Assembly: GCA_965116905.1 (NCBI GenBank)
Contig: OZ220732.1
Location: 704,001-768,000 of the forward strand
Length of the DNA: 64,000 nt
Direction of reading: 5' to 3'
Source of the DNA: Longimicrobiales bacterium
GTDB lineage: Bacteria > Gemmatimonadota > Gemmatimonadetes > Longimicrobiales > Gaopeijiaceae
Positions 8,345 through 53,686 of the stretch are shown piece by piece. Below the pieces are notes generated by a model, which saw only the letters and a program-made list of their open reading frames with translations, searched no databases and had not been told where the DNA came from. Position 1 is the stretch's first letter. Each line of letters starts with the position of its first letter. The position numbers were made by a program, and so were the translations under genes.

Positions 8345-8917
8345 ATGACACGTTTCCTTCGACCGGTGCTCATCGGAATCGCCGGGGCGAGCGTGCTGGC
8401 CACGGCCGGGTGCGCCAGCCGCGGGCGAATCCCGGAGGTCGCAACCCTGGCACCGTACAACGGCGAGTGGGTGCTCGCAGCGGTCCAAACCACCGGCCAG
8501 CGCCTCCAATTCGTGTCCCCGGAGGGCTCCGGCTTTGTCCGCGGCACAGGACAGAAGGTCTTGGCGATCATGGCGATGCGCGCGGAACGATTCGTGCTGG
8601 AGGTGAGCGATTCGCACTTCCGGGTTTCGAGCGATGAACCCGGCTTCGCCTTTGCGTTGCCTATCGACGGCACCCCGGTGGAAGTCCTTGCTGACGACGG
8701 CGAATTGGAACAATCCATAGCGCTGAGATGGGATAACGGAATGCCGGTCGTCAGGCGGACGCTGCCGGGTTCCGGATGGGTTTCCGAACGCTTTGGGTTG
8801 ACCGCAGACGGGGCGCTGATCATCACCCGTACGGCGGCACAAACAAACAACAGGGGAACGGATGTGCGAGCCTCAGGCGATATAGTAGTCGCCTACACTC
8901 GGAGCACAGGTCCGTAG
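8345..8917 (+). CDS. Hypothetical lipoprotein
   Basis: ATG at 8345 after AAGGAG; lipobox-like TAGC. Confidence 0.65.
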   Translation: MTRFLRPVLIGIAGASVLATAGCASRGRIPEVATLAPYNGEWVLAAVQTTGQRLQFVSPEGSGFVRGTGQKVLAIMAMRAERFVLEVSDSHFRVSSDEPGFAFALPIDGTPVEVLADDGELEQSIALRWDNGMPVVRRTLPGSGWVSERFGLTADGALIITRTAAQTNNRGTDVRASGDIVVAYTRSTGP

Positions 8918-8925
8918 AGGTGAGA

Positions 8926-10104
8926 ATGAAACCCTATCCTATCATCACTACCCTGCTCACCCTGATGGCCCTTGCGGGTCTGTTCTCACTGCGCATCGTC
9001 GGGCTCTACAGCCACCAGGCGCTGGCAGTCGTGCTGCTCCTCGGCCTCGTGTGGGCGATCGCGAGCCGCGGCTGGCTGGCCGGAAAACGGCGCCTGCACC
9101 TCGAACTGCTCCGCGAACCTGGCGGGCGCGACCATCGGCCCCAGCTTCTGCAGGCGATCGGGCGTGCGAGCTTCTGGGCGATGACCGGTACCGCGTGCGC
9201 GGCGGTTTTCCCACGCTCGGCCGAGATGACGCCCCTGATCGCGGGCGTGATCGGGATTGCCGTGCTGCTCGTCGCGGCCTCGTTCCTCGTCCCGCGCCGG
9301 ACCAATGCCGGGCCCACCCTCGTCATGGCGGCAAGCGCCCTGGTCCTGGCGTTCGATCTGGGTCGCGCGTTTGCGGGCGGGGGCTTCCGGGATGGCGAGG
9401 CCGACATCGTGCAGCTTGCTCCACCCTTCGAGGGCGAGTGGCTCGTCCTGCAAGGCGGTCCCAGTCCCCTGCAGAACCACCATCTGTCGGCCTACAACCA
9501 GCGGTTCGCCCTCGATCTCGTGCAGCTGGACAACGGCCGGATCTTCACCGACGAGGCGGGCAACGCGTCGATCTACAGCTGGGAGCAGCCCCTGATATCG
9601 CCCGTGGACGGTACGGTGGTCATGGCAGAGGACAGGATGGAGGATGCGGAGGGCGCGAACTTCGTGACCGATCCCGCGGACGCGGCCGGCAACGTGGTCG
9701 TCATCGAACTCGACACCGGCCACTTCGTCGTCCTTGCGCATCTCCGCCACGGTACGCTCCAGGTCGACGAAGGCGACCGGGTTCGGAAGGGCGATCCACT
9801 GGCTCTGGTCGGCAACTCCGGCAACACGACCATGGCACACCTCCATCTCCAGGTGCAGACCCACCGCGACCTCTGGGACCCCGACAACCGGTCGGTGCCG
9901 TTCGTGTTCGAGGGTGACGGCCGGGTGCTGGCGCGGAATGATCGGGTCGTGGGGGCGAGCAGTTTGCAGCGCGCATTGGCCGCCTTCGAAGACGGGGACT
10001 TCAGACGTGGCGGCAGTACCAGGGCTCGTTCATTTCGCAATCGTAGCAAACGCCGTCCGGATGCGTCCGGTGCCAGGCGATCGTCGCGCTCGCAATCAGC
10101 TTGA
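8926..10104 (+). CDS. Membrane-anchored M23-family metallopeptidase
   Basis: N-terminal TM helices; QRFALD, LAHLRHG, VGNSGNTT and HLHLQ motifs. The C-terminal tail overlaps the convergent ORF. Confidence 0.85.
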   Translation: MKPYPIITTLLTLMALAGLFSLRIVGLYSHQALAVVLLLGLVWAIASRGWLAGKRRLHLELLREPGGRDHRPQLLQAIGRASFWAMTGTACAAVFPRSAEMTPLIAGVIGIAVLLVAASFLVPRRTNAGPTLVMAASALVLAFDLGRAFAGGGFRDGEADIVQLAPPFEGEWLVLQGGPSPLQNHHLSAYNQRFALDLVQLDNGRIFTDEAGNASIYSWEQPLISPVDGTVVMAEDRMEDAEGANFVTDPADAAGNVVVIELDTGHFVVLAHLRHGTLQVDEGDRVRKGDPLALVGNSGNTTMAHLHLQVQTHRDLWDPDNRSVPFVFEGDGRVLARNDRVVGASSLQRALAAFEDGDFRRGGSTRARSFRNRSKRRPDASGARRSSRSQSA

Positions 10105-10249
10105 TGTCCTCGAGCGCCCTGTGGAGCGTGTGATGCGCCGAGCCACCCACCAGGTGTGATACCCGTACTTCCACCTTCACCAGCTCGTCGACGGTTCGGA
10201 GCAGTTCCAGGGCCTCTTTCTCGGCTTGGCGGTGGGTGAGGTCAGGCAT
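10001..10249 (-). CDS. Small hypothetical protein with C-terminal CYDC...C
   Basis: 82 aa from ATG at 10249, directly downstream of the Cys-rich peptide gene on the same strand. Confidence 0.45.
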   Translation of the reverse strand: MPDLTHRQAEKEALELLRTVDELVKVEVRVSHLVGGSAHHTLHRALEDIKLIASATIAWHRTHPDGVCYDCEMNEPWYCRHV

Positions 10250-10310
10250 GGTGGGGTCCTGTCGGTTCGGTGAGTCCTTCTGTACGCGGCCCGCATCCCA
10301 TGCAGTCGCC

Positions 10311-10532
10311 TCAGAACTTCTTCCCGCACATGTCATCGTCCAGGCAATTGAATCGGAACATGCAACAGTTGCCGCAGCAGTACGGGTCTCCCGCCACGGT
10401 TTGCTTGCAACAGTGGAAAAGGAAGCCCGAACTGGACGCAGCGGCCGCGGCCTTCGGGGTGGCGAGTGTCAGTGGCAGCAGAGCCGCGTTCGCCGCGACC
10501 GCGAGCAGGATCCATAGGAGTCTCTTTTTCAT
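10311..10532 (-). CDS. Secreted 8-Cys peptide (CC-x9-CC-x2-CC-x5-C-x5-C)
   Basis: Signal peptide MKKRLLWILLAVAANAALL, GGAG RBS, core CCKQTVAGDPYCCGNCCMFRFNCLDDDMC; paralog at 51595. Confidence 0.8.
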   Translation of the reverse strand: MKKRLLWILLAVAANAALLPLTLATPKAAAAASSSGFLFHCCKQTVAGDPYCCGNCCMFRFNCLDDDMCGKKF

Positions 10533-10579
10533 TTGTCGTTCTCCAGTCTGTGCTTAAGGGGTGGATAGCGGTACATCCG

Positions 10580-11128
10580 TCAGAGTGCGTCAATCGCTTC
10601 TATCATCTGTTCCAACCGGCGGCCGTGCCCATCGAAACGAAGCACACCAGCCGAATCAAACACAAAGACCCAAGGCGTCCTGGAAAACAGAGGGTACATC
10701 GGGTCGGCAGGCGTCAGCGCTTCCGAGCTGAGGACATCTACATCCCAACCAAAGCGTTCGGCATAGGCCACCGCCGGCCCCACGGAATCGTTGGTCACCG
10801 CGATTCTCTGCGCGAAAGGTCTGTCGGTCTGGTCGGCAGCGAAGTGCTCCGCCCATTCCGGCGCCACAGCGTGACAGTGCACGCAATCCGGATGGAAGAC
10901 GTACAGGATCGTAGGAATGCCGGCATCGGTAGCGAGTCGAATGGTCGTGGGGACATCGCCTCCGAAGCTCCCCGTCAAGGCGAGCAAGGTGTCCCCGACG
11001 ACCATTTCGGCTGCGGTCGCCGACGGAGAGCCCACTTGCTGAGCCCGACTGACCGCCAGGACAGCCTGGCTGCCGACCCCCGCCACGAGCAAGAACAGCA
11101 ATGCGTTCAGCCAGTGCGTCGTCTTCAC
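10580..11128 (-). CDS. Exported thioredoxin-fold (TlpA/peroxiredoxin-like) protein
   Basis: Signal peptide, YVFHPDCVHC CxxC motif and cis-Pro loop RTPW. Confidence 0.8.
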   Translation of the reverse strand: MKTTHWLNALLFLLVAGVGSQAVLAVSRAQQVGSPSATAAEMVVGDTLLALTGSFGGDVPTTIRLATDAGIPTILYVFHPDCVHCHAVAPEWAEHFAADQTDRPFAQRIAVTNDSVGPAVAYAERFGWDVDVLSSEALTPADPMYPLFSRTPWVFVFDSAGVLRFDGHGRRLEQMIEAIDAL

Positions 11129-11198
11129 GATGAGGCGCCTCTCTGGATGGAGTGCGGTTTGGGCTGCTATACCTCTCCAAACGCAAGAGGGCTGGTCC

Positions 11199-11219
11199 GA
11201 ATACTGTCATTTTCCGACA
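11199..11219 (-). promoter_or_regulatory. Conserved 21-bp upstream motif, copy 1 (TGTCGGRRAATGMCAGTATTC on minus strand)
   Basis: Near-identical copies at 15129..15149 and 23451..23471, each upstream of a minus-strand gene. Confidence 0.55.
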
Positions 11220-11267
11220 CAGGGCCCGGCCATCCCGTCTTTTCGGATTCCCGGCCCGGACCGCCCT

Positions 11268-11771
11268 TCAGTCCTCCTCCATCCAGTCCATCAGCAGTAC
11301 CCTCATCTCCGGCATCTTTCGCAGCTTTGACATCGTCCGGTTGAGGATCGATCGTGCTGCAGATTGGCTCACTCCAATCGTTTCCGCGGTCTGCTTCAGG
11401 TTACGGCCCATGACCCCCCACACCGTCAGAGTGTCGCGCTCGCGGTCGGTAAGCCGGCTCAAGGCGGCTTGCACGATCGGTTGGGCTTCCTCCCGGCGCA
11501 CCTCGTCCAGGGGATCGCACCAATCCGCCGCCACCTCCATGGGGCTCGCCATTGGCACCTCCACTGCTCGAACCCGCTTCTCCGCCCGTAAGGCGTCGAC
11601 ACAGCGGTTCTTGCTGAGGGTGATTGCCCAACGAGCGAACGAACCGTTCCACTTGAACTGATCCAGCCGCTCCAGGATCGCCAGCCAACAGTCCTGGAGG
11701 AGGTCCTGAGCGTCGTCGTCGTCCCTGGCATACGGGCGAATCGCAACCCAGATGCGAGGGCTGAGTTCCAC
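11268..11771 (-). CDS. ECF RNA polymerase sigma factor
   Basis: Region 2 DDAQDLLQDCW...GSFARWAITLSKNRCVD and region 4 LSRLTDRER...AETIGVSQSAARS. The frame continues upstream (DPVDIERL) to an in-frame TGA, so the true start is uncertain. Confidence 0.85.
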   Translation of the reverse strand: MELSPRIWVAIRPYARDDDDAQDLLQDCWLAILERLDQFKWNGSFARWAITLSKNRCVDALRAEKRVRAVEVPMASPMEVAADWCDPLDEVRREEAQPIVQAALSRLTDRERDTLTVWGVMGRNLKQTAETIGVSQSAARSILNRTMSKLRKMPEMRVLLMDWMEED

Positions 11772-12007
11772 GACCAGCTCACGCAGAAGGTCCTCGTCGC
11801 GGTTGTGAAGCCGCTCGATATCGACTGGATCAGTGATCGATCAGTGCCTTCGCTGGCTGGACAATTGTGGGCATCGACGCCGCCGCGTTCTCGTCTCGTC
11901 TTCTCAGTGCGGTTGGAGCGCACCGGACCTAAAGATAGGCCAAAAGAGCCGCCGGGTACCGGACCGAACTGGAAGTCACGTGGACCGCTGGTTACCATTG
12001 AAGAACG

Positions 12008-13201
12008 ATGGGACTTCTAGCAACGCTCACGGGATCCAAAGCGGTCTCCCGAAAGCCAGTACCCGTGGGGTTCGCTGGCTCAGCCGTCCGTTGGTTTCTG
12101 GGACTGAGCGCGTTGTACGTCCTTTATGCTTCGGCCAACTTCGTCGGTTTCGCCGATGATCTCCGGATCGTCAACCGGCTCGGAATGGTGTTGGGACCCA
12201 CGATGGCGGCCTTGTCACTTCTGGTCGCGCCAGCCACCTTCGCGGCGGCAGCTGGCGACTCCGCCACCAAGGGGCGCGAGCGCGGAACTCTCCCCAAGCA
12301 AGTCGTGCGGTTGGTACTCCTCGCTCTAGGTGCCTATGCGTTGTACGGGGTTGGACCGCGGCTCAGTTCGGCCTTGCTGGTTGTGGAGGGCCGAGCCCCC
12401 ACCGTGGGCGCCACCTCGCAGATCGTGGACAGCGCTCGTTTCTGGGTGCCGAGCACAATCGCCATCTTCACTGTCCTCGCGGGTGTCGCGGGCGGGATTA
12501 CAAGCCGACTTGCGGAGTGGTGGAATCCCGGGCGGCGAGTCACGATGATGTGGTTGTCCTTTCTCGGCTTGTTCCTTTCCTTCTGGCTGCCGCTCCTGCT
12601 GACGACCAATATGATCCTGCACAGTGGCGTCGCACCCGCATGGATACTGCCAGGCTCTCTCCTGCTTCCCACTATTCTGATCGCAGGGATCGCCTGGTGG
12701 CAGGCCGAAGGTCTGCACCTACCGAATGTTCTTCGCCGTCGTCGAGGCCAGGACGGTCCGCACCACCGGCCCCGCCTCGACCGCGTAGACCGCGCCGTCA
12801 ATCCACCTGCTGACAGACCCGACGAGCCCGCCATTGCAGCGGCTACCGCCACCCGGGCCGAGCTGGAGATGATTCATCTGGCCAAGGGGATCCGCAGCGT
12901 GATCGGTCCCAGCGCCAATCTCTCACCGCAACGCGTGGACGAGATCGTCAACCGCTTGGTCGATGCTCCGCGGACTGAGGCAACCAGGCAGGAAGGGGCC
13001 CGGCGAGCACCTGACCGGATCCACCGACCGGCGACCGTGGGTCAATTCTGTACGAACTGGGCCTGCCTCGCGGCAGTCTTGCTGATGGTCGGGATGCTGG
13101 GTGGGGTGCCGCCCAATCTCGCATTGGCAGGGCTCGCGGGCTTGCTGGGGTCTGTCCTTATTCGGACGACAGCGGCCGGGACACTCAGCATGGCTCGGTA
13201 G
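12008..13201 (+). CDS. Multi-pass membrane protein with anti-sigma-like C-terminal part
   Basis: Several TM helices; by eye the N-part resembles 51832..52674 and the C-part resembles 53231..53686. Confidence 0.65.
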   Translation: MGLLATLTGSKAVSRKPVPVGFAGSAVRWFLGLSALYVLYASANFVGFADDLRIVNRLGMVLGPTMAALSLLVAPATFAAAAGDSATKGRERGTLPKQVVRLVLLALGAYALYGVGPRLSSALLVVEGRAPTVGATSQIVDSARFWVPSTIAIFTVLAGVAGGITSRLAEWWNPGRRVTMMWLSFLGLFLSFWLPLLLTTNMILHSGVAPAWILPGSLLLPTILIAGIAWWQAEGLHLPNVLRRRRGQDGPHHRPRLDRVDRAVNPPADRPDEPAIAAATATRAELEMIHLAKGIRSVIGPSANLSPQRVDEIVNRLVDAPRTEATRQEGARRAPDRIHRPATVGQFCTNWACLAAVLLMVGMLGGVPPNLALAGLAGLLGSVLIRTTAAGTLSMAR

Positions 13202-14045
13202 GGCTGGTCCCATTCGTGGTCCAGCCCCTCCTCTGCTCGCGCTGCAAGTCCGTCCTCACTTCCGGCAGCGCATCCGACTCATACTCAAGACCGGCGACAT
13301 CTCCGCAACGATCGGACCCGTAGTATTTGCGTCTGGTTGGGAGGAACTCAGGACTCTCGCAGCGGCGAACCCGGGCTCACCAGCGATCGTAGACCCCGAC
13401 CTCAACGGGATCGGCGCCCCGTGCGCCCTGGGCCAAGACGAGGGGCCTGGCCACCCTCAATACGCCCCCCCGGTGATCGAGTATCCGTGTTCGGACGCCC
13501 AGATGCGGTCGGTTTCGGACGAAACCGCGATTCCCGTGACGCGCGTGAAACAATGTGACGTCGGTGACATCCGTGCCCTGGAGCTCGCCATCCTCAAGAA
13601 CATCGACGCCGAACGGCTCCATCGACTGCTCACCCGCGCCGACGCACGGACTCCCGCGGGTGCCTCGCCCATTCTCCGTCTGTTTTTTTGGCGCGCGGTC
13701 GAACCATGCCGAGTCGGGGCCCTGGCCGCCGCTCTTGACGTGACGGAACGCACCCTGCTGCGCCGATGTCGTGGTCTGGGGATCGCCCGTCCCAAGGATC
13801 TGTGGGCGCTGGCTCGCGTCTTCGCGGTCGCACGGCTGCTCCATTGGAGCAAGCGGCCCTTGAGTTCCGTGGCCCTCGCCCTGGGGTTCTCGAATGACGC
13901 CAACTGCTACCGACTGCTACGTCGCATTCTGGGGAGGACCCTGTCGCGTGACATGACGAGGGACGACATGGATCGCGTCGAGGAGGTCATTCTGAGTGAG
14001 ATCGTCGGAACAAGCCGGACCGCGGGTGATCGCTCGGAGCAGTAA
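13101..14045 (+). CDS. AraC-family helix-turn-helix regulator (start uncertain)
   Basis: LAAALDVTERTLLRRC and SVALALGFSNDANCYRLLRR double HTH at the C-terminus. Confidence 0.75.
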   Translation: MGCRPISHWQGSRACWGLSLFGRQRPGHSAWLGRAGPIRGPAPPLLALQVRPHFRQRIRLILKTGDISATIGPVVFASGWEELRTLAAANPGSPAIVDPDLNGIGAPCALGQDEGPGHPQYAPPVIEYPCSDAQMRSVSDETAIPVTRVKQCDVGDIRALELAILKNIDAERLHRLLTRADARTPAGASPILRLFFWRAVEPCRVGALAAALDVTERTLLRRCRGLGIARPKDLWALARVFAVARLLHWSKRPLSSVALALGFSNDANCYRLLRRILGRTLSRDMTRDDMDRVEEVILSEIVGTSRTAGDRSEQ

Positions 14046-15059
14046 TCAGGTAGCCTCCACTGACGGCGATGGTTGATCCGGTTGCCCCGCACCATTGCCG
14101 ACACCCACCTCGCGGTTTTCGTGCTGCCGGAGGATTTCGGCTATTTCCGCTTTGATTCCTGGTTCTAACGAAATGAAGCCTGACTCCGATTCCTTTGGCT
14201 CGACGGCGACGAACCGGTTGAATTTCTCCCAGTACGACGGCAGGAATTCGTTCGCCTCATATGGCGACTGGATCCCAGCGTCGGCCAGTTCTTGCGGCAA
14301 GGCCTGGCGCAGGATTCGGAAAGAGCGCTTGTAGATGCTTCGGGCCCCAGGTCGGCATGAGGGTAGCACGTTGACGCCCAGTTTCCGCATCGCTTCAGAG
14401 AACCGGCCTGTTTCCCGACGGTCATCGTGATTCCGCAGCGCTCGACCTACGTGAATTGCGTGAAACAGCCCGTTGGATACGATGGTCTCATGGATGGTGC
14501 GAAACCGACACCAGATCGTCTCGCTTTCGACGAATAGTCCGGAGTGAACGCGATCACTCGCGTCATCGACCAGTGCCACCAACTCCCAGGTCCGCTTCGG
14601 CAACCACTGATAAGTGCAACCAGCCTGGTGAAGCAGTCGCCCCTCGGCGAGCTGCCGACCATCGCATTTTGGCGTCGACCGAGTGGAACGGCGTGGGGTC
14701 ACGAGGCCCGACTCGTGCAGATGATTCTTGGCCCAAGTGTATGACCGTGTACCCCCATGGGAGTCCCTGTACGCTCGGTAGAACTTGCGTACAGGCCATC
14801 CCCGGTACCGTTCCGCGTAGAGTGCTACCAACGCGGCAACTTCCTCGTCAGGTGCCCTTCGGGGATTCGTAGCCCGCCGATCTTCAAGCCCCTTCAGGCC
14901 CATTTCCCGGTACCTCGCGACGTATCGTCGGAAGGTCCGTTCAGAGATTCCCAAGAGGTATGCCGCGCGCGACTGACTGATATCACGGCTCGTCCACTGC
15001 TCATAGACCTCAGCAAATCTGGCCGTTCGCAGGTCGCGCATGGTAGATGTCTTGCTCAC
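14046..15059 (-). CDS. ISNCY/IS481-like transposase-derived protein with apparently substituted DDE triad
   Basis: HTH AAYLLGISERTFRRY, GTRSYTW, LVDDAS, LPQELADAGI...EANEFL; LHQAG, IHVGR and SIYKRSF occupy positions normally D, D and E. Confidence 0.75.
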   Translation of the reverse strand: MSKTSTMRDLRTARFAEVYEQWTSRDISQSRAAYLLGISERTFRRYVARYREMGLKGLEDRRATNPRRAPDEEVAALVALYAERYRGWPVRKFYRAYRDSHGGTRSYTWAKNHLHESGLVTPRRSTRSTPKCDGRQLAEGRLLHQAGCTYQWLPKRTWELVALVDDASDRVHSGLFVESETIWCRFRTIHETIVSNGLFHAIHVGRALRNHDDRRETGRFSEAMRKLGVNVLPSCRPGARSIYKRSFRILRQALPQELADAGIQSPYEANEFLPSYWEKFNRFVAVEPKESESGFISLEPGIKAEIAEILRQHENREVGVGNGAGQPDQPSPSVEAT

Positions 15060-15128
15060 TTAGCACTCTCACAGTTGGGTCGCTTGTTCTGGCCGCTCCA
15101 ACCATTTGAAACGTCAGGAAGTCAGGGA

Positions 15129-15149
15129 GAATACTGTCATTCCCCGACA
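15129..15149 (-). promoter_or_regulatory. Conserved 21-bp upstream motif, copy 2
   Basis: Forward gaatactgtcattccccgaca, about 70 bp upstream of the 15059 start. Confidence 0.55.
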
Positions 15150-15454
15150 TTGCGCCCAAAGCGAAGGCGATTTTCGCATGGGTCGCCGCGCTCCGAGTAC
15201 ATCCAGAGTCGCCTTGGCTGGACTTGGTTCCCATTCCGGCCAAGCCGACCACCGATTCCGCCAAGCCGATCGCAGATTCCAGGCGCGATGCCGATCACCG
15301 TCAAAGGAGCGGAGGTCCCTAGGCGCGCTGGGTGGCGGGTGAGGATTGGAGTTTAGGGTGTTGAGTCGGACTTCGTCGAGTCGTAGAGCCGTCTCATCGA
15401 AGTGCCTTTGACAGTGATGCGGTGAGTGTTGTTGAGGAGCCGTCCGAGGGCGCA

Positions 15455-16440
15455 CGTAACGGCATTGTTCCCGATCGGTCTTCTCGCATTCGAGAAGCAG
15501 AGAGAGGCGGTCGTCGAAGGAGAACTCGCTGATGTCGGGCATGGCGGTCTGCTCCTTGAAGGCCTGGGCCATGCCCGAGAGCCGGAGTTCGTGGGGCAGG
15601 TCGAAGGTGGGTTGGCGAAGCATGATCGTCAGGACTTTTTTCCGTTGTGGGAGGTGGTGTAGTACTCGGGCCCGCGGATGTGGGCGCGCTCTGCAGGCAG
15701 GGAGAGTTCATGCTGCTCGGCGGCGGCTTGGTCGCGGCCGGTTGCGAGGATGAAGTTGACGGATCGGTAGCTCAGCGTTCCGAATTCCAGCGCATGGTGG
15801 CAGGCGACCTCCAGACGTTCGGCCGAGTAGGCGCGCAGCGGGCTCATGAGCCCGAAGACAGCTGCGGTAGCCCTGTTCGAGGTGGGGTCGGCTCTCGAGG
15901 AGTTGTGCGATGAACCCGGCCGTGTGCGGTCCGGCCTTGCGGCCCCAGGCGATGAGGCGCGACGGAGTCCACTCGACGTGGGCGCGGTGGGCAGCCGGCA
16001 TGTGCGCCGGTTCGGCCGCGTATCCTCCTCTCCTGTGGATCCGCAGGTGCGCGGCCACCCGTCGGTGCTTGTGGAAGATCTCCACGGTATGGGCAGTGAT
16101 CCGAACGTCGACCTCGCGGCGGGCCAGCACGTGGGGACGCTGTACAGCGCGTGCCCGGTTTGGATGTGGTAGTCGATGTTCACGCGGGCCTTGCGCCACT
16201 CCGCGTACTCGTAGTGCTCGGCCGGGAGTGGCCTGAGCGCCGGCCGGTCCAGATCCTTGAACCAGCTGCGACGGCTGCCGTCGGTCTTTGTCGAACGGCC
16301 GCTCGTTCAGTGCCGCCAGCAGCGGCCGGGTGGCCTCGCGGAGCTCGCCGAGGGAGAAGAACGTCTGGTTGCGCAGCGGCGCCATGATCCAGCGCTCGAC
16401 GTTCTGGACCGCGGCCTCCACCTTCGTTGTCCCGTGGAGA
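15455..16440 (-). mobile_element. Degraded IS21-family element (istA 3' fragments and istB 5' fragment)
   Basis: KVEAAVQNVERWIMAPLRNQTFFSL, VNIDYHI, EWTPSRLIAW and HIRGPEYY in several frames (IstA); LRLSGMAQAF...FDDRLSLLLECE (IstB N-terminus), truncated. Confidence 0.85.
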
Positions 16441-16805
16441 GCCGGGCCGCGCCGACAGCACGGTGGTTCCGTAGCGGGTGGCCAGTTCCTAGTACCGGAA
16501 CACCTTGTACTCGCTATACCGGCAGCCTGTTGATCTAAGTATGTTATTCCCAATGGCATCACTGATCGGCATGCACCGGAATCAGCAGCTACTTGAGCTG
16601 CCCGAGGGCAGGTGGCGGAACGGAAAGTGAGACACATCGGCGACATCGGCGACTTGCCGTGCCATCGCTCCGTTCATGGAAGAGTCGCGCATCCGCTTCA
16701 GAACGCCCGCTGACCAATGGAGAAGCGGTAGGGCGCTTCTCCTAAGGTACGCCCCCAACAATGATCGCACCGTCCAGGCTACCGCAATCCGGGACATCTC
16801 GCTCG

Positions 16806-19562: not shown

Positions 19563-19581
19563 GACGCTGGGATGTGAAGGG

Positions 19582-20748: not shown

Positions 20749-20840
20749 TGCATTCCGTAAAAAAGGCGTTCGTACCCAACAAGGCAGCCGCAGCCTGCCG
20801 CCAGGTGACGTTAGACGGGCTTGGATACCGGCGTGAGCCA

Positions 20841-20886
20841 CCTGCACCGCGGGGTGAAACCGAAGAACCGACCGCCGCGGTGCAGG
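20841..20886 (-). other. Stem-loop between precursor and cyclase genes
   Basis: 12-bp perfect inverted repeat CCTGCACCGCGG/CCGCGGTGCAGG with CTTCGG in the loop region on the minus strand. Confidence 0.7.
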
Positions 20887-20909
20887 GTGAACTCACGCAA
20901 CCGGGGCAA

Positions 20910-45282: not shown

Positions 45283-47031
45283 CTAGGACGCTTGGCCCGC
45301 AACAACCCGACTAACCACCGCCCTCGGGACGTCCAGCTCATCAGTACGGCGCAACAAGACGACATCTCCCTTCGCGTCGAGTAGCCGTTCATCGGCGTCC
45401 AGCCTGACTCTGAAGAGCGCCGTGGCCGGCTCCAGGTCCCATGCGCGCCACGTCACACTGTCCTGATCGGTGAAGTGGTAGTCGCGCACCCAGAGCCTCT
45501 TGTCGAAGTCGATGAAGACCGAATCGATCGGCGGTGCCAGTTCATTCGCCGGCCACAGGTTCATCGCCAAGGGGGACGCGTCGACGGCGGCCATCTCCTC
45601 TTCGGACCAGACCGTGCTCAGCAACTCGGCGTGCCTGGACGGCATTGCAGCCATGTACTCGCGCGCCACGCGCAGCTGATTCGCCGACACGCGAGTCGGC
45701 GGCGGCATCGGGATGCGGCCGACCTCGCTGCCGTCCCACCTGAACACTTGGATGGCTTCCTGATCGGTCTCGGCAATGACGAAATGATCTGCGGAGGCAG
45801 CCATCAACGACCGGTGCCCGAAAAGTACGCCGCCGCTGGCGTCAGTTCCGTAGTAGTGCTCGTAGCCCTTGGTCTGGGCGACGATCTCAAGTTTACCTTC
45901 GTCGTTCACAGCAACATACTCGACCGAGTCCCATGTCCGCCCCCGGAAGTCCCCGAAGGCCCTGGATTCCGAGTCACCGAACACAATGCGACCGTCCCGA
46001 TGAACCGCTACCGGGGGCACAGATAGCGAGCCTTTGAATGGGACAGCCTGATAGCTCAGGTCGCGCAGAAAGGCACCGTCGTGGTCAAGCGACACGACGC
46101 GACGCCGGAGTATGTCCCAGAGCGCGATGCCCTGCGGACCACGCAAGGCACGGGAGATGCGGCCGAATTCGCGTGGGCCGCCACCCTCCCTGCCGAAACC
46201 CCGGATCTCTCCCGATGCCATGTTCACGAAGTGGACTTCGGTCCGCTCCACCAATGCCAATCCATCGCCGGGAAGGAAGAATCCGGCGGTAATGAAAGAC
46301 AACGCGTCGGCCAAGTCCGGATGTTCCGATGTGTCGAAAGTCGATACGCCGGGAACCAGAAGCTGGACCCCGGGGTCTGGCGCGCCGGCAACGGCCGCTA
46401 CGGCAGCCGCCAAGTCCCCTGGGTGCAACGCTCTCTCCGAGACAAAGGTAGGAGTTCCAGGGATCTCAAGGATGCTCGCCAGAGCCACGTCTCGCGCCAG
46501 ACGATTCTGGCTCTCGTCGCCACCCATGCAGGCGACGTACGACCGAAAGTCGCTGATCCCCAAGCTCTGTGCGAAGCGAGTCCAATCCCGATCGTCGAGC
46601 CATGTCTGATCGGCAAGCAGCGATTCGTGGGCCTCCCGAAACAGCCCGAATTTCTCGGCGCAAATGGCAGCCAAGGCGGCTTCAGTGGCGGCAGCCCCAC
46701 CGTTTGACGGGACATGCCGTACGACCACAGTGAGGTCCTCCTGGCTCACAGCCTCCAACACGGCTGGCGCCAATCTTCGGCACACCTCGCACTCGTAGTC
46801 GATGAACTCTACGATGACGCCTCCTGAGGAGGACTGTCCGAGGCGGCTTGGTGCTTCCACCAAAGTGTTCCAGTTGCGAGAGACTCGGCGCTGCTCGTCC
46901 CACCCGCGGTACGTTGAGCCAATCCACCGCCCGACCACACCGGACGGATTCAGTAGCAGGAACGCGAGAGTAACGACTATCGCAATGTTGGCGACCCGGT
47001 TCCAGCGGTCGCGCTTGTCTCGGTCACTCAC
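45283..47031 (-). CDS. DsbA/thioredoxin-domain protein fused to a beta-propeller domain
   Basis: TM anchor, IVEFIDYECEVC, AALAAICA, IPGTPTF, then FGREGGGPREF and RRTDELDVP. Confidence 0.82.
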   Translation of the reverse strand: MSDRDKRDRWNRVANIAIVVTLAFLLLNPSGVVGRWIGSTYRGWDEQRRVSRNWNTLVEAPSRLGQSSSGGVIVEFIDYECEVCRRLAPAVLEAVSQEDLTVVVRHVPSNGGAAATEAALAAICAEKFGLFREAHESLLADQTWLDDRDWTRFAQSLGISDFRSYVACMGGDESQNRLARDVALASILEIPGTPTFVSERALHPGDLAAAVAAVAGAPDPGVQLLVPGVSTFDTSEHPDLADALSFITAGFFLPGDGLALVERTEVHFVNMASGEIRGFGREGGGPREFGRISRALRGPQGIALWDILRRRVVSLDHDGAFLRDLSYQAVPFKGSLSVPPVAVHRDGRIVFGDSESRAFGDFRGRTWDSVEYVAVNDEGKLEIVAQTKGYEHYYGTDASGGVLFGHRSLMAASADHFVIAETDQEAIQVFRWDGSEVGRIPMPPPTRVSANQLRVAREYMAAMPSRHAELLSTVWSEEEMAAVDASPLAMNLWPANELAPPIDSVFIDFDKRLWVRDYHFTDQDSVTWRAWDLEPATALFRVRLDADERLLDAKGDVVLLRRTDELDVPRAVVSRVVAGQAS

Positions 47032-47067: not shown

Positions 47068-47265
47068 CTACTCTTCGGGGCATTTTATCCCAGACCCGCG
47101 TGCGTGGCCGATTGGACACACCCATGCGATGCATTCGTCGTCCGTACATGTCATGCAGCCACTGGTGTGGGTCTTGCAATCCTTTTGCTGAGCGTGGACA
47201 GGCTTCGCTTCCATTGAGAGCAGGCCAACCAGGAGCAAGCCGAGGATCTGGAGGGTGCGGTTCAT
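47068..47265 (-). CDS. Secreted 6-Cys peptide (65 aa)
   Basis: AGGAG RBS, ATG at 47265, signal peptide ending VHA, core CKTHTSGCMTCTDDECIAWVCPIGHARGSGIKC. Confidence 0.78.
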   Translation of the reverse strand: MNRTLQILGLLLVGLLSMEAKPVHAQQKDCKTHTSGCMTCTDDECIAWVCPIGHARGSGIKCPEE

Positions 47266-47313: not shown

Positions 47314-47690
47314 GAGTGGCGACTCTCGCCCCTCTATATATCTGACAGTTCTCGCGGCGGAAATGTGCAATCGGGCTGCGAACGACCCCCGATCACCGCA
47401 GGTCAGTTCCTCCCCCGGTGAGCGCTCGGGCCACCTCGGCAAGGCCGGCGCCATGACCATCGGTCACGACCCGCCCCTCCTGGTCCAGCGCGACTATCCA
47501 TGGGGTCCGTCGCGCCAGAATGGCGGCCTCCGGCTCCCCTGCAGGGTGCTCCAGGGACAGAACGTCAACGGGCCAACGGTGCTCCCTTGCGAAGTCGATC
47601 GCATCGGCCAGGGTCCCGTCAGGGTGCCTCACGGGAACTGACGACAGATTGTAGCCAATCGGAATCGGGTCGGCCTCGCGCCGCGCCTTC
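47314..47690. repeat. Diverged duplicate of 50650..51160 with a 150-bp internal deletion
   Basis: Long near-identical stretches from gagtggcgactctcgcccctctat to gcatcggccaggg, then a jump to tcccgtc. Confidence 0.9.
47338..47370 (-). promoter_or_regulatory. Putative ECF promoter TTGCAC-N17-TGTCA, site A
   Basis: Minus strand ttgcacatttccgccgcgagaactgtcagata upstream of peptide gene 47265. Confidence 0.6.
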
Positions 47691-47704
47691 CGGTCTCCAA
47701 TCAA
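47393..47704 (-). pseudogene. Truncated copy of the thioredoxin-fold gene lacking signal and active-site segment
   Basis: Matches 50739..51299 except for 50 missing residues including FDPDCAHT. Confidence 0.8.
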
Positions 47705-47724: not shown

Positions 47725-48933
47725 TCAGCTGAACGGTACCAGTCTGCGTCCCTGGACCTGTCCGGCGAACCGTCTGTCTACGTGCAGTCCCCAGACATGC
47801 GTGGACGTAGCATCGCGAAGCATGAATTGTTCCGGCAAAAGGACGCGACGTGGTGGCGACTTTGGCTGCGCGCGGTCGATGGCATACCAGACGGCCATCG
47901 AGTCGTTCGGTTCGTTACTTCGAAGCCATACTTCGTTTGACGCTGTTGCCACAACAGCGGTAACGGGTGGCAGGTGATCGGGAATGTGGAGGGCCGCTTC
48001 GACCAGGTCATGGAGAGTCGAAGTCGCCAGAGAGTCGTCGCTCGACCGCAGCCTTCGAGATATGCTTTGCATGTGCGACGCGACGACCGTCTCGACGCGC
48101 TCCCGGTCCAGAAGCGACAACGGCAACTGTAGTCGTGCTTCTAGCACGGTATCTTGGCCCGGCACCACCTCGACCACCCCGACCTCGCCTGTACCCATGT
48201 TCCTGTTCACGATTCCCACCGCACCCGCCTGCCGGTTCCAGTACATCAAGTCATGATCGGCAAATGGCTGGCCGGAGAACACCTGGTTTCGACGCACCGA
48301 GATGCCCAAGGTCCGCCCGGAAGAGTCAAACATGGCCACCGTATCGGCCACCCATTCATCGTCGGCCAGCCGAAGATGCGCCGCAGCAACCTGCCAACCG
48401 GGGTGTCCCAACTCCCAGCTGAACACCCGGTGCGGAAAGGGAAACCGCCCGCGGGCAAGCAGGGTCCCATCGCCGAGAACTACGATACCCCCCTGGAGCC
48501 ATTGGTCGGGCGGGCTTCGCATCGTCCGCACAAGACGACCATCGAGCAGGAATCGCCCAAACCCGCGATCATATTGGACCCAAAGCCCGGTCGAATCCAG
48601 CTGGACGTTTCGAGGGTTACCCAATTGTGCGACATCGTCTCGAGGCCACAATTCCAACACGGGCTCACCCAAGTGACGCGAATCCCAAACCGTGACCCTG
48701 CGAGGCTGAAGGACAGCGATCATGGTGCCGGTGCTGGTGGAGCGCACGTTCTGTAGAAACGGCAACGCGTTATCGGTCCCCGGCTCTCCTCCGATGACCT
48801 TGTCGTATTGCGTTGACCAGTCCTGTGGTACAGCACGGGCATTTGCCTCAACAGGCTTCCCAACACCGATGGTGTAGAACAATGCGGCAAACCAGAGCCA
48901 CATGAGGCGTCCCGTTGTTCCTTTGCCGATCAA
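47725..48933 (-). CDS. Divergent beta-propeller-type secreted protein
   Basis: Signal peptide; C-terminus EVWLRS...WYAID...RRVLLP resembles the neighbour 48930..50171. Confidence 0.7.
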   Translation of the reverse strand: MIGKGTTGRLMWLWFAALFYTIGVGKPVEANARAVPQDWSTQYDKVIGGEPGTDNALPFLQNVRSTSTGTMIAVLQPRRVTVWDSRHLGEPVLELWPRDDVAQLGNPRNVQLDSTGLWVQYDRGFGRFLLDGRLVRTMRSPPDQWLQGGIVVLGDGTLLARGRFPFPHRVFSWELGHPGWQVAAAHLRLADDEWVADTVAMFDSSGRTLGISVRRNQVFSGQPFADHDLMYWNRQAGAVGIVNRNMGTGEVGVVEVVPGQDTVLEARLQLPLSLLDRERVETVVASHMQSISRRLRSSDDSLATSTLHDLVEAALHIPDHLPPVTAVVATASNEVWLRSNEPNDSMAVWYAIDRAQPKSPPRRVLLPEQFMLRDATSTHVWGLHVDRRFAGQVQGRRLVPFS

Positions 48934-50171
48934 TCCGGATCCCCAGTGTGGCGAACCAATAGGCGGCCAACCACATAGCGTACGTCAAAGGAATCGAATC
49001 GGGTGCCCCACAGAACGGATTCAGTAGCGTCGAAAGGCAGAAAGGTAGCTGGCAACAGGACTCGTCGTACGGCAGAGGCAGAGTCCCGCGCAACTCCGAC
49101 CTGTACCGCATACCATACGTCCAGCGAATCAGCACCCGCGTCTTCGTACGTCCTCATCCACATCTCACCGTTGGACAGTAATGCCATGTTACGGACGGAC
49201 GGATAGTTCTCGGGCACGTACAAAGCCTCTCGAACGGCCCTTCGTGCGTCGGCCAGGAGCGCATCTGACCTCCGGTTCGCTATGGTCGTGGCGACGTTCT
49301 CGACGAGCTCTTCCACTTCTTGCACCGGCAGGGCAATGGGTGGGAACCGTAGACTTCGGAACCAAACGGTATCGCCGTCCGCTGACAGCTCCGTCAAATG
49401 GACCACCCCTGGATCCAGGCCTCTTTGTCGGGTGACGACGACCGTCTTCGACCACGAATTATAGCTTGCTTGGTCAGTGTCTCGGTATGGTTGCCGCGAG
49501 AACGAGGTCAGGCCGGAACTCTGATCGTTCTTGCCAGTCGCAAGAATCTCGTTTCGAACATCAAGCATCGTCAGGACATCAACCGTCCAAGCGCCGTCCT
49601 GTTCCCTCAGACGGACGACGGGCAACTCCACCACCGGATCGTCACCCCACCATCCAGACATGTAATCCGGTGAAACGCTGGGATAGGCCAAAAAGCTACC
49701 GTCGTCAAGCAAGAGTGCGGGGCGAAATCGGAATCCGCGATGGCTCACGGAAAGGGGTATGGACACCGTGCGCAGGTATTCTCCGTCAGGCGAGAACAGG
49801 ACGAAGCGATCCCGGTCACGCACCTGGAATCCATCAGATGTGACCTGGACTCGATCAGGGCGTCGGAACTCTCCCGGTCCCTGTCCTTCGCCTCCGACCG
49901 AAAACAGGGGTGAACCGTCAGGCGTCCAGACGGTCACCCGAAGATCACTGGGATCGACAACGTAGACCCGGGTTCCCTCATCCCCCAGGCCGACATCAGA
50001 TACCCTGGTGAAGGCAGCGTCTGTTCCGTGCAGGCTGCCTATTTCATACCGTGGCACCGTGACCCATGTATCGACGGCGTCAAGGAATTCCGGCGGTGGA
50101 TCGTCACCGCACCCATAACCTGCGGCAAGGACCGAGGCAACGATCCACCACCGCCGGAAACCGAACGTCAC
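48930..50171 (-). CDS. 6-bladed beta-propeller-type lipoprotein
   Basis: Lipobox GYGC, VGGEGQGPGEF and C-terminal LWGTRFDSFDVRYV. Confidence 0.8.
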   Translation of the reverse strand: MTFGFRRWWIVASVLAAGYGCGDDPPPEFLDAVDTWVTVPRYEIGSLHGTDAAFTRVSDVGLGDEGTRVYVVDPSDLRVTVWTPDGSPLFSVGGEGQGPGEFRRPDRVQVTSDGFQVRDRDRFVLFSPDGEYLRTVSIPLSVSHRGFRFRPALLLDDGSFLAYPSVSPDYMSGWWGDDPVVELPVVRLREQDGAWTVDVLTMLDVRNEILATGKNDQSSGLTSFSRQPYRDTDQASYNSWSKTVVVTRQRGLDPGVVHLTELSADGDTVWFRSLRFPPIALPVQEVEELVENVATTIANRRSDALLADARRAVREALYVPENYPSVRNMALLSNGEMWMRTYEDAGADSLDVWYAVQVGVARDSASAVRRVLLPATFLPFDATESVLWGTRFDSFDVRYVVGRLLVRHTGDPD

Positions 50172-50175: not shown

Positions 50176-50622
50176 CTAGCCTAGCTTAAGCGCACTGCCC
50201 GGAAGAACTCCGTCGGAGCCTTGGGCCACGACAAACCCGACCAACGAGCCACCGCACTTCTTCCGGACGAGAAGCCGGCCGCCTTGAGTGGCCACGAAGT
50301 AGGGAGTGTCAGCGGGCAAGATGCCGCCGTCTGCCACTAGTGCGAGGACTTCCTGCGTGGCAGCTTCTTCCTCGACCGGCGAGAGCGCGAATCCTCCACA
50401 CAGCTCGGAACCCTCGTCCGGGAGACACATGCCTCGACCCTCGACGGGACCCGCGCCGACCGCGCATTTGGAGAATCCGTATTTGTCGTCCTCCTGATCG
50501 TCGCAGAGGTCGGTGTCCAGGTCGCAGGTATAGCACTGCGCCATGGCGGGCGTTCCGCCAAAAGCGATTCCCATTAATGGAAATCCGACCATCACCATCG
50601 CGGCCAAGAGTTTCCTTTTCAT
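50176..50622 (-). CDS. Secreted protein with N-terminal acidic 6-Cys module (148 aa)
   Basis: GGAGG RBS, ATG at 50622, signal ending AMA, then CYTCDLDTDLC...C...C...C and a C-terminal extension. Confidence 0.78.
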   Translation of the reverse strand: MKRKLLAAMVMVGFPLMGIAFGGTPAMAQCYTCDLDTDLCDDQEDDKYGFSKCAVGAGPVEGRGMCLPDEGSELCGGFALSPVEEEAATQEVLALVADGGILPADTPYFVATQGGRLLVRKKCGGSLVGFVVAQGSDGVLPGSALKLG

Positions 50623-50672: not shown

Positions 50673-50706
50673 TTAACTTGACAGTTCTCACGGCGGAAAT
50701 GTGCAA
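50673..50706 (-). promoter_or_regulatory. Putative ECF promoter, site B
   Basis: Minus strand ttgcacatttccgccgtgagaactgtcaagttaa. Confidence 0.6.
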
Positions 50707-51358: not shown

Positions 51359-51391
51359 TTAACTGACAGTTCTCGCGGCCCAAATGTGCAA
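51359..51391 (-). promoter_or_regulatory. Putative ECF promoter, site C
   Basis: Minus strand ttgcacatttgggccgcgagaactgtcagttaa upstream of 51299. Confidence 0.6.
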
Positions 51392-51495: not shown

Positions 51496-51528
51496 TTGCA
51501 CTTTTCTGCTCTGAGAACTGTCAGTTAA
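51496..51528 (+). promoter_or_regulatory. Putative ECF promoter, site D
   Basis: ttgcacttttctgctctgagaactgtcagttaa upstream of peptide gene 51595. Confidence 0.6.
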
Positions 51529-51594: not shown

Positions 51595-51792
51595 TTGCGA
51601 ACGATCAGGGTGGTCCTTATCCTGCTCAACCTCGTGTTGGCGGCGGCTTTACTGACGCAGGCGAGCGCGGCGCGTTCGACCGACGCCATGCGCACTTGCT
51701 GCCGGGGCGATGGTCCGGAAGCGTACTGTTGCTATGGCTGCTGCTGGCTCTTTTCAAATTGCGACAGGAGCAGCGACTGCCAGGACGGGTGA
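51595..51792 (+). CDS. Secreted 8-Cys peptide (CC-x8-CC-x2-CC-x5-C-x5-C)
   Basis: GGAGG RBS, TTG start, signal peptide, core CCRGDGPEAYCCYGCCWLFSNCDRSSDC. Confidence 0.8.
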   Translation: MRTIRVVLILLNLVLAAALLTQASAARSTDAMRTCCRGDGPEAYCCYGCCWLFSNCDRSSDCQDG

Positions 51793-51831: not shown

Positions 51832-52674
51832 ATGGCGGAAACAAATCGCGGCTACGCAGCCTGGATGGGCCCGGTCGCGAGAGCGATGTGGCCCTGGTGT
51901 TTGCTCTTCATCGTCGGCAAGCCGCTGTTGGAACTGAGGCGGCCGCCGTATGAGTGGTCGGTAAGCTCCCTGAGGTGGCTGTGGGGTGTCACCGAGGACG
52001 CCGCGTTGGCTCTCCCGTTCCTGATCTTCGCGGGTGGCGTGGCGCTGGTTCGGGTGCTGGGAGACTCCCGCCGCCTCGTACGGACGGCGGTGGCTGTCGG
52101 ACTCTCAGCGGGTGCAGTCACATATGCCTTGGGCGCGTGGGTCGCTCCGGAGGTACACAGTCGATTTCTGGCTGCTCTGGATCCCGAAACCGTGGATTTG
52201 CGCCAGTTCGGGCCGAGAACCCCGCCCGGCATCGTGGAGAATCTGCGGTTCGTGGAGGCAAACCCTCCCGGGGAGTACACCCTGAACGTAGGGGCCCCAC
52301 ACAGGTTCCCGCCGAGCGTGCTCCGTTGGGAGCTGCATCGCCCTCCCGCCATGGCGGTGTTCGCCGTCATCAACGTGCTTCTGGGTGTGCTGGCCGCAAA
52401 GCTGACCCTCGAACTCAGTCGTCGGGCGCAGCGGAACGCTCGACTCGCGATCGGTGTGTTCGGCGGGATCGCTTTCTTCGCGTGTCTCGCGGCGGCATCT
52501 CCCGTGGAGCCCTTTCTTCGCGATGGCACCATGCGATCGGGTGTCCTCGGTGCCTGGGTGCCGTTGGCCTTCCCGTTGGCACAGACGTTGGTGCTCGTGC
52601 ACCTGCTGCGCCGACGGGAGCACCGCCACCCCAACACACGGCCGGCCGAGTCGTTCGGTAGAGGACCGATGTGA
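51832..52674 (+). CDS. Multi-pass membrane protein
   Basis: About six hydrophobic helices; lies between the peptide gene and the ECF sigma gene. Confidence 0.7.
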   Translation: MAETNRGYAAWMGPVARAMWPWCLLFIVGKPLLELRRPPYEWSVSSLRWLWGVTEDAALALPFLIFAGGVALVRVLGDSRRLVRTAVAVGLSAGAVTYALGAWVAPEVHSRFLAALDPETVDLRQFGPRTPPGIVENLRFVEANPPGEYTLNVGAPHRFPPSVLRWELHRPPAMAVFAVINVLLGVLAAKLTLELSRRAQRNARLAIGVFGGIAFFACLAAASPVEPFLRDGTMRSGVLGAWVPLAFPLAQTLVLVHLLRRREHRHPNTRPAESFGRGPM

Positions 52675-52704: not shown

Positions 52705-53253
52705 ATGAGTGAATCGAAACGGCCCGACTTCGACGGTGTTCGGGAAGCGCTACAGCGCTTTGGACCCCTCATCGAGACGGTCGCCGAAAAATATGCGGAA
52801 GATGGCGATGACCAGGATGACATATACCAGGAGATTTGTGTCCGCATCGCGAAGCGTCTACACCAGTACGAAGGCAAGGGCGCGCTGGGTGGTTGGATCC
52901 AGAAGCTGGCACATCGTGTCGGCTTGAATTGGTGGAACGGGCGCACGGCCCACGAGGAGCGGCTGGAACGATACGAAGCGGAGATGCTGCCGATGGACCT
53001 TGCTGAGTCCCTGATCGACAACCCGGAGAAGCTGTTCGACTACAAGGAATTCCTCCAAGGCCTGGGACACGTGCTCACCCGCCTCCCGGAACGACAGTCG
53101 GATGTGATGATCTTGATCCACCTGCACGGGCTCAGTTTTCCTGAGGTGGCGAAGATCCTGAAGTCGAAGGAATCCACGATCCGATCTCATCATCGGCACG
53201 CCAGAAGGAATCTTCGGAGGATGCTGGGAGATGGAAATGATGACTTGCCCTGA
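52705..53253 (+). CDS. ECF RNA polymerase sigma factor
   Basis: DDQDDIYQEI...GALGGWIQKLAHR and LTRLPERQ...GLSFPEVAKIL...STIRS. Confidence 0.88.
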   Translation: MSESKRPDFDGVREALQRFGPLIETVAEKYAEDGDDQDDIYQEICVRIAKRLHQYEGKGALGGWIQKLAHRVGLNWWNGRTAHEERLERYEAEMLPMDLAESLIDNPEKLFDYKEFLQGLGHVLTRLPERQSDVMILIHLHGLSFPEVAKILKSKESTIRSHHRHARRNLRRMLGDGNDDLP

Positions 53254-53686
53254 CTACATGGTGCTGGCCCGCACGGACTTGCGTAATGCCGACCCGGAGT
53301 TGGTCGAGCACCTGAAAACCTGTCCATCGTGCTGGCTCGACTGGCAGATTCTGCACGGTCTGCGTCACGTGTTGGACCCCCAGAGACCGGTTCGAGCCGA
53401 TCTGAACGAGCGGGTGATCGCCAGGCTGGCCCTGAGCGCAGCGCAGCTGGAGAGGACGCTGCGGTGGCAGGATCTCACGATGTCCGCGGTGCTGGTCGTG
53501 GTTGCGACGGGCGTCTTTTTTCTGGCGACCGATACTGCGGGCTCGGTTGTGTCCGTCTCCACGGCGCTCTACGTGATCGTGGCAGGTCTCGCGGCGGCGC
53601 TGTACGTGAAACGTGAAGACCGTAACGAACGCGCGGTGGCATTGGCGGCGGCGGGGGTGGTGATTCCGGAGGATGGCGATCAGTGA
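53231..53686 (+). CDS. Zinc-binding anti-sigma factor (ZAS-type) with two TM helices
   Basis: EHLKTCPSC (H-x3-C-x2-C); overlaps the sigma factor stop. Confidence 0.8.
   Translation: MEMMTCPDYMVLARTDLRNADPELVEHLKTCPSCWLDWQILHGLRHVLDPQRPVRADLNERVIARLALSAAQLERTLRWQDLTMSAVLVVVATGVFFLATDTAGSVVSVSTALYVIVAGLAAALYVKREDRNERAVALAAAGVVIPEDGDQ

Follow-up and report, generated by a model that had tools for sequence, protein, structure and literature searches.

Two loci in a stretch of 64,000 nucleotides from a Longimicrobiales bacterium (the window: contig OZ220732.1, positions 704,001-768,000, of assembly GCA_965116905.1) encode members of a family of eight-cysteine mini-proteins which, judged by sequence comparison, is previously undescribed. 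Locus A extends over window positions 10311-14045; locus B comprises the surroundings of the second peptide gene, at about 45283-53686. In all likelihood, the architecture is that of an exported disulfide mini-protein with a dedicated thioredoxin, placed under the control of a sigma factor of the extracytoplasmic function (ECF) type. To the best reading of this arrangement, namely that the mini-protein acts as a ligand in a positive-feedback loop of the sigma factor, we give a probability of about 45%. The two peptide genes of the window are as follows.

10311..10532, minus strand: peptide A, 73 amino acids (aa), with a signal-like N-terminus containing the family asparagine and the mature frame CC-x9-CC-x2-CC-x5-C-x5-C
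51595..51792, plus strand: peptide B, 65 aa, TTG start, with the frame CC-x8-CC-x2-CC-x5-C-x5-C

The original prediction, made from the letters of the window, had noticed that both peptides follow the frame CC-x8/9-CC-x2-CC-x5-C-x5-C. They are indeed the sole matches in its six-frame translation, with the first spacing relaxed to CC-x6..12-CC-x2-CC-x5-C-x5-C. The host genome (4.2 Mb, 97% complete) contains four matches, each behind a hydrophobic N-terminus, and none appeared in seven controls (the reversed genome and each of six block shuffles). Of 52 other genomes in the genus, 39 have relatives of peptide A. A profile built from 40 sequences retrieved, among 1.84 billion representatives, 212 clusters at 50% identity; nearly all of the 150 that were listed are short proteins that bear a signal and keep to this frame, and a repeat protein of 484 residues was a false match. 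When 401 genomes of the phylum were searched, the family turned up mainly in one family-rank group (19-20 of 69 genomes); a second group has two members verified by context, and the remaining groups searched gave none. Database names on the relatives are those of Gemmatimonadota. Leads to clusters of Acidobacteriota and Pseudomonadota scored just 0.80, under the level taken as evidence; the matches G159 (two stops) and G285 were discarded as spurious. Viral contigs held no member, nor did the 121 matches listed for a DNA pattern of the cysteine spacing alone in genome contigs. Fused forms of 176-2000 residues were absent from 7998 candidates, which is weak evidence. That no named family could be recognised has stood: neither Pfam nor NCBIfam gave anything above noise for 103 members (NVEALA, PF14055, had no match at E 0.1), and a PDB sequence search found nothing. 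The literature searched, mostly outside subscription journals and without supplements, describes neither the peptide family nor the gene unit.

Exactly eight cysteines follow from the first CC onward in 150 of 153 complete sequences, on which the peptide statistics rest. The aromatic positions adjoining the CC pairs are conserved: tyrosine or phenylalanine precedes the second pair in 93% of the family, and after the third pair tryptophan, then phenylalanine or leucine, predominate. Of the two strings said to be shared by the window peptides, YCC and FxNC, the latter is literal in peptide B only; peptide A reads FNC, and the asparagine is found in 44% of the family. The mature peptides are acidic (median net charge -3; +2 or more in just 9 of 153) and under purifying selection, with a ratio of nonsynonymous to synonymous substitution (dN/dS) of 0.11-0.29 in two orthologue sets (n = 8 and n = 4; 0.23-0.29 for peptide A, with eight orthologues). 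By inspection, the precursors display a basic N-terminus, a hydrophobic core and a cleavage-like site, which in the broad subfamily is a clear small-x-small residue pattern followed by glutamine. Within the hydrophobic N-terminal helix, 142 of 153 members carry an asparagine, against 6 of 300 signal-like open reading frames (ORFs) of the host genome. This residue, together with the anti-sigma factor, the propeller partner and the promoter motif that are discussed below, goes beyond what had been seen at the outset. Export and disulfide bonding of the peptides are likely, as far as sequences can tell. Three divergent variants have six cysteines; Cys4 and Cys5 are missing jointly, which suggests that they form a bonded pair, and two of the three also lack the asparagine. 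An AlphaFold model of one member predicts an N-terminal helix, a beta-hairpin and a short helix (pLDDT 85). Fold searches with this model returned nothing at E 0.001 (best Z 2.1) and gave no support to the likeness with eukaryotic disulfide-rich toxins that had been evoked, here taken as knottins and conotoxins, such searches being weak for so small a domain. Finally, contigs of a sponge metatranscriptome, from a 95% relative, span window positions 8797-11525 with a flat depth equal to that of unrelated neighbours, DNA carry-over being possible; locus B is barely covered there.

As to the company kept by the peptide genes, it had been proposed to check whether homologues co-occur with the partner genes, and they do. 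We gathered 44 loci, four from the host genome and 40 picked from the longer contigs among the matches, and counted genes within 4.5 kb of the peptide; as the profiles were built from the same 44 loci, the counts measure co-location, not discovery. A thioredoxin-fold gene is present in 38, a membrane protein in 40 (21 of type A, 19 of type B) and an ECF sigma factor in 40; an anti-sigma factor is found in 19 and an AraC-like regulator in 20 (either of the two in 39), and a dedicated propeller lipoprotein in 17. In the host genome, the thioredoxin, membrane-protein and anti-sigma families are confined to the four peptide loci. The dedicated propeller subfamily, whose best PDB sequence matches are NHL-repeat structures, accounts for one of about 111 host propellers (489 bits versus 82 for the next). 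Across 151 genomes of the family-rank group, the peptide is present in 17, the thioredoxin in 15 (14 with the peptide) and the B-type membrane protein in 16 (13 with the peptide). Distant metagenome members (23 loci fetched, many short) display the order of the full unit: thioredoxin > propeller > peptide > membrane protein > ECF > zinc-motif anti-sigma. This unit is complete in the host genome at locus L002, and loci A and B of the window have both lost the dedicated propeller. Gene order indicates that the unit is made of two modules, thioredoxin-propeller-peptide on the one hand and membrane protein-ECF-anti-sigma on the other. At locus L112, the thioredoxin, propeller and peptide genes are tandemly duplicated as identical copies, with no sigma unit. 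Locus A is of a second type, with an AraC-like regulator, a sigma factor of a separate clade and a probable ATC start.

The thioredoxin-fold partners in the window are these:

10580..11128, minus strand: membrane-anchored thioredoxin-fold protein A, with CVHC, T-cisPro-W and a glutamine in the anchor helix
50739..51299, minus strand: thioredoxin-fold protein B, homologous to protein A, with the monothiol active site CAHT

Their homology was correctly perceived (36% identity over 107 aa, E 3e-20), and the motifs quoted for them are present. The family has a single N-terminal hydrophobic helix with an invariant glutamine, an invariant first cysteine, and Thr/Ser-cisPro-Trp. In the PDB sequence search, chains of thioredoxin-like proteins and of protein disulfide isomerases came out best, and 2m72 covers most of the profile at E 4.8e-7. 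The family thus shares the thioredoxin fold and the cis-Pro loop of TlpA/PDI-like dithiol oxidoreductases. The active site reads CxxC in 15 of 35 members, CxxS in 15 and CxxT in five, a mix that would fit an isomerase or holding role better than that of a plain oxidase. Genes of the VKOR and DsbD types are present in the host genome, where DsbB was not found. The asparagine of the peptide and the glutamine of the anchor are both retained in two distant genomes without the membrane protein, and one might guess from this that they recognise each other within the membrane. Proteins combining a thioredoxin with an NHL propeller are known, NHLRC2 and SOQ1 being examples. They share with the present unit a thioredoxin fold adjoining, or fused to, a six-bladed propeller; here the two are separate genes, with a peptide as their partner.

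The membrane proteins of the second module come in two forms:

12008..13201, plus strand: A-type membrane protein, 397 aa, its N-terminal part distantly related to the B-type, with a C-terminal extension containing two further hydrophobic segments
51832..52674, plus strand: B-type membrane protein, 280 aa, whose family has a predicted LptF/LptG transmembrane fold and lacks jellyroll and coupling motif

They had been described as related. BLASTP does not see it (E 1.2, unrelated at that level); profile-profile comparison does (probability 84-92%, E ~1e-6, 210 columns), indicating that the two families are distantly homologous. The structure model of the B-type protein, made for the paralogue in locus L002 (pLDDT 89.7), resembles the six-helix transmembrane fold of LptG/LptF with Z 16-18.6 (at Z 18.6, root-mean-square deviation 3.2 and 229 aligned), the next unrelated fold being at Z 8.6. 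Foldseek also ranked Lpt chains first, yet at E 0.03 or worse; PF03739 matched 18 of 33 members weakly (best E 1.2e-4), and global hhalign of the membrane family with the host LptF/G gave no usable alignment. The model contains no strand, and hence no periplasmic jellyroll; about 45 residues separate helices 3 and 4, and helices 51-80 and 83-117 abut. In LptF and LptG, E-x2-A-x2-A-x-G is the motif that couples them to their ATPase, LptB. It is present in the host's true LptF and LptG, encoded by a separate lptF-lptG pair, and in none of the 33 rows of the family; a motif scan for ATP-binding cassette (ABC) ATPases found none in the 44 loci. The protein is thus predicted to have an LptF/G fold deprived of jellyroll, coupling motif and adjacent ATPase. 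It differs from LptF/LptG (PF03739) further in having no paired subunit and in its linkage to a sigma unit.

The regulators that follow are:

11268..11837, minus strand: ECF sigma factor A (TIGR02937, 84.7 bits, cut-off 42.9), probable ATC start at 11837
13101..14045, plus strand: AraC-like (HTH_18) regulator (PF12833, 39.1 bits, cut-off 33.6), start uncertain, probably after 13200
52705..53253, plus strand: ECF sigma factor B (TIGR02937, 81.6 bits)
53231..53686, plus strand: predicted anti-sigma factor with CP...HxxxCxxC, two hydrophobic segments, a short loop and no sensor domain of its own

That an ECF sigma factor would stand at each locus was right, and both consist of sigma2 and sigma4 domains only; they are just 25% identical and belong to separate clades (the midpoint split has support 99/96, and the A side includes one additional sigma on a long branch, which comes from a B locus). 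The anti-sigma family (HxxxCxxC in 17 of 18) has no periplasmic domain, which calls for a separate sensor. In the simplest reading, the membrane protein next to this sensor-less factor would be that sensor or a transducer. Locus A has the AraC-like gene in the position of the anti-sigma gene of locus B; no anti-sigma factor is found in type A, and the AraC-like regulator is near 20 of 21 loci with an A-type membrane protein. The reading frame of ECF A opens 22 codons ahead of the first GTG (11771), with ATC at 11835-11837. In 9 of 12 A-type sigma genes examined, ATC or ATT opens the frame after a stop, behind a purine-rich stretch; the other three have ATG. A-type ECF genes thus probably start at a non-canonical ATC/ATT, and so weak a start could stand in for the missing anti-sigma factor.

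At this point a quite different function has to be considered. The peptide might be a periplasmic metal or oxidant buffer, induced through the zinc motif of the anti-sigma factor (CP...HxxxCxxC), with a monothiol thioredoxin that keeps or resolves its thiols, a role for which CxxS/T in 20 of 35 thioredoxins and eight cysteines in 28-29 residues would be suitable. Bufferins are a precedent: according to the available part of their description (PMC11626156), they are Sec-exported cysteine-rich mini-proteins that bind copper, with several loci per genome and an adjacent ECF sigma and anti-sigma pair, SigF/NrsF. Formation of thiooxazoles is another mark of bufferins. In the place of their MNIO (DUF692) we have here a thioredoxin, a propeller and a protein of LptF/G fold; MNIO (PF05114) has no match in the host genome, while the control search did find it in Caulobacter. 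Histidine and methionine make up just 2.5% of the mature part, the cluster list inspected for the 44 loci has no metal transporter among recurring neighbours, and a confident folded model with a nearly fixed even cysteine count fits disulfides better. We find such a buffer distinctly unlikely, and metal binding the least favoured of the three readings, signal, effector and metal.

Sequences that look like promoters were located at both loci:

51496..51523, plus strand: B-type promoter-like motif TTGCAC-N16-CTGTCA, ahead of peptide B > membrane protein > ECF > anti-sigma
51364..51391, minus strand: B-type motif ahead of thioredoxin-fold protein B
50679..50706, minus strand: B-type motif ahead of a 148-aa secreted cysteine protein and two propellers
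47343..47370, minus strand: B-type motif ahead of a 65-aa six-cysteine peptide and a DsbA-propeller fusion
11175..11219, minus strand: A-type promoter-like motif TGTCGGAAAATGAC-N21-GCGTT, upstream of the thioredoxin-peptide operon

TTGCAC-N16-CTGT(C/T)(A/T) is thus present four times at locus B, with the spacing of an ECF promoter, and is absent from type A loci. A matrix derived from ten sites of other genomes finds six sites above 20 bits in the host genome and none in two controls; a broader one (65 sites) finds 11, again with none in controls. In 53 genomes, the plain pattern TTGCAC-N16-CTGT has 183 matches versus four in controls, and it occurs in 37 of 42 genomes with the B-type membrane protein versus 1 of 11 without, kin not being independent. 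Of nine sites in the host genome, eight stand before the gene of the peptide, of the thioredoxin or of some further small secreted cysteine protein, and a module-family gene lies behind 21 of 37 sites examined outside it. Through this motif, the B-type sigma unit would be connected with both peptide and thioredoxin, and the B sigma factor presumably recognises it. The A-type motif is conserved in orthologues, ahead of the thioredoxin gene. ECF sigma factors with zinc-binding ZAS (HxxxCxxC) anti-sigma factors are a known class, with which the B-type unit shares a sigma factor limited to sigma2 and sigma4, an adjacent HxxxCxxC protein, and a promoter-like motif ahead of its own operon. Driving one's own operon is common among ECF sigma factors (PMC7776599, in its available part). 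The present systems depart from that class by a third membrane component, of LptF/G fold, and by the want of an anti-sigma factor in type A.

Several further occurrences of these motifs deserve mention for themselves. At L315 and L324, in two genomes, a B-type motif stands ahead of a periplasmic efflux-adaptor-like gene (by eye), a candidate outer-membrane route. At L307, L317, L333 and G000:C1:1565323, hence in several genomes, it turns up again within or next to one and the same enzyme-like gene. At L330 (G000:C1:394340-394915) an ArsR-like regulator (by eye) is followed by a tiny, very cysteine-rich ORF; the opposite strand carries a strong B-type motif, behind which there is no clear gene. 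At L283 (G000:C1:364753-369241), A-type and B-type motif-like sites occur together, upstream of a propeller run and a six-cysteine secreted peptide.

That the B-type motif also precedes unrelated secreted cysteine proteins, as in a cargo regulon, and that several peptide paralogues coexist in a genome, would agree with a peptide that is an effector, antibacterial or host-directed; the sigma unit would control its production on another cue, and membrane protein and propeller would serve production or self-protection. Bacteroidetocins, class IIf bacteriocins of Bacteroidales, offer a parallel: in the available part of PMC6671954, a small cysteine peptide is paired with a dedicated thiol oxidoreductase and a five-transmembrane protein of unclear role, both needed for full activity. 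Likewise gallocin A requires its disulfides and a thioredoxin-like neighbour, in the accessible portion of the preprint (bioRxiv 10.1101/2022.12.05.519244). Our peptides, however, have a Sec-like N-terminus and not a double-glycine leader (GG or GA at most 14 residues from the first CC in 18 of 153, hence not conserved), eight cysteines and not four, and a cluster devoid of a peptidase-ABC transporter, to which propeller, ECF sigma and anti-sigma factors are added. The host's two C39 peptidase genes are far from the four peptide loci, the mature domain is acidic, and there is no excess of amino-acid change among orthologues. The unit is also present in metagenome loci of free-living type, so that a target in a sponge host is not needed. 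On balance, an effector seems to us somewhat unlikely. As far as sequence features go, the unit may be likened to bacteriocin- or bufferin-type clusters for its cysteine peptide, dedicated redox partner and ECF control, and it appears to belong to neither.

We come back to the ligand. The peptide would be exported, likely by Sec, and oxidatively folded, likely by the neighbouring membrane-anchored thioredoxin-fold protein; the dedicated propeller lipoprotein may handle it. Once folded, it would act as a ligand, and the membrane protein of LptF/G fold would pass the signal on to the anti-sigma factor. Once set free, the ECF sigma factor would transcribe the genes of the peptide, of the thioredoxin and of further secreted cysteine proteins. 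Type A loci likely use the related membrane protein with the AraC-like regulator and a weakly translated sigma factor, in place of an anti-sigma factor. The secreted disulfide peptide with folding catalyst and sigma circuit first imagined is supported by gene context, co-occurrence and promoter-like motif, be it as signal or as effector.

Another way to couple peptide and sensor would be a built-in brake or redox probe: held in the envelope, possibly uncleaved, the peptide would restrain the membrane protein or the anti-sigma factor, and a failure of its disulfides to form would lift the restraint. In both types its gene immediately precedes that of the membrane protein, including where the propeller has been lost; in 116 of 142 members the helix asparagine stands 24-26 residues ahead of the first CC; and the regulon includes thioredoxin- and DsbA-like genes. 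The clear cleavage-like site of the broad subfamily speaks against it, as does the existence both of sigma units without peptide and of peptide units without sigma unit, and we hold this brake to be hardly probable.

The ligand loop itself has to face a number of adverse observations. With CxxS or CxxT in more than half of their family (20/35), these thioredoxins are not ordinary dithiol oxidases. Several single-cysteine losses among the matches weaken the argument drawn from the joint loss of Cys4 and Cys5, and in the alignment no clear signal-peptidase site is seen for many of the B-type precursors. Ten loci were fetched for lacking a listed peptide match: an ECF or anti-sigma gene directly follows the membrane protein in all of them, a linkage in favour of the loop, but eight, chosen in that way, indeed have no peptide nearby (of the remaining two, one is cut by the contig end and one has a divergent peptide). 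Conversely, thioredoxin > propeller > peptide exists without the membrane protein in two genomes of another family and at L111 and L112. The two modules being separable, the membrane protein may sense something else. Outside the host genome, 16 of 37 motif sites have no module gene within 1.5 kb downstream; by eye, they include a DsbA-like gene and two efflux-adaptor-like genes. As for the A-type motif, its 12.9 bits in the host genome lie inside the background range. A more elaborate version of the ligand reading would make of the peptide a four-disulfide pheromone, folded through intramembrane Asn-Gln recognition and perceived by an ATPase-less receptor derived from LptF/G that controls the ECF sigma factor via the sensor-less anti-sigma, the units without peptide being eavesdropping receivers. 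Taken as a whole, it is unlikely.

The remaining genes of locus B are the following:

50176..50622, minus strand: 148-aa signal-bearing cysteine protein, unrelated to the CC peptide, behind a B-type motif
47725..50171, minus strand: two beta-propeller proteins (48930-50171 and 47725-48933) of a generic family, outside the peptide's dedicated subfamily
47393..47704, minus strand: truncated second thioredoxin-fold gene copy, active-site region missing
47068..47265, minus strand: 65-aa signal-bearing six-cysteine peptide, unrelated to the CC peptide
45283..47031, minus strand: fusion of a DsbA-like thioredoxin domain with a propeller-like one (above cut-off for PF13462 and PF01323; clusters with propellers)

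At locus A, a small ORF lies directly behind peptide A (10001-10246, minus strand); it is conserved in six A-type loci and has no Pfam match. Transposase remnants border the locus at 14046-16646 (an IS481-like HTH at 14046-15059 and further fragments), and both window loci have a GC content of 0.62-0.63, compared with 0.68 for the genome. Elsewhere in the window, an unrelated 80-aa signal-bearing cysteine peptide (25070-25312) lies directly ahead of a propeller lipoprotein (23881-25050), both on the minus strand; such pairs are found elsewhere in the genome for 4 of 111 propellers with a strict filter, versus 0.27 at random. A lanthipeptide-like cluster occupies 18072-23338 (minus strand), comprising a class III/IV synthetase that is split (kinase/lyase 18072-19700, LanC-like 19582-20847), a precursor of 47-56 aa (20910-21080) in which the motif S-x2-S-x2-C occurs twice, and an ABC transporter (21461-23338).

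It is mostly from eukaryotes that mini-proteins with several disulfides are known. More than 200 bacterial clusters (at 50% identity) built on one fixed eight-cysteine scaffold and accompanied by their own folding partner would be a source of natural scaffolds and, possibly, of a dedicated foldase. A receptor of LptF/G fold would be a categorically new possibility: if true, an ATPase-less fold of this kind tied to an ECF/anti-sigma pair would give ECF signalling a new route of input. Although the organisms are uncultured, the loop can be tested directly in a laboratory host, thanks to its promoter motif and its unit of six genes.

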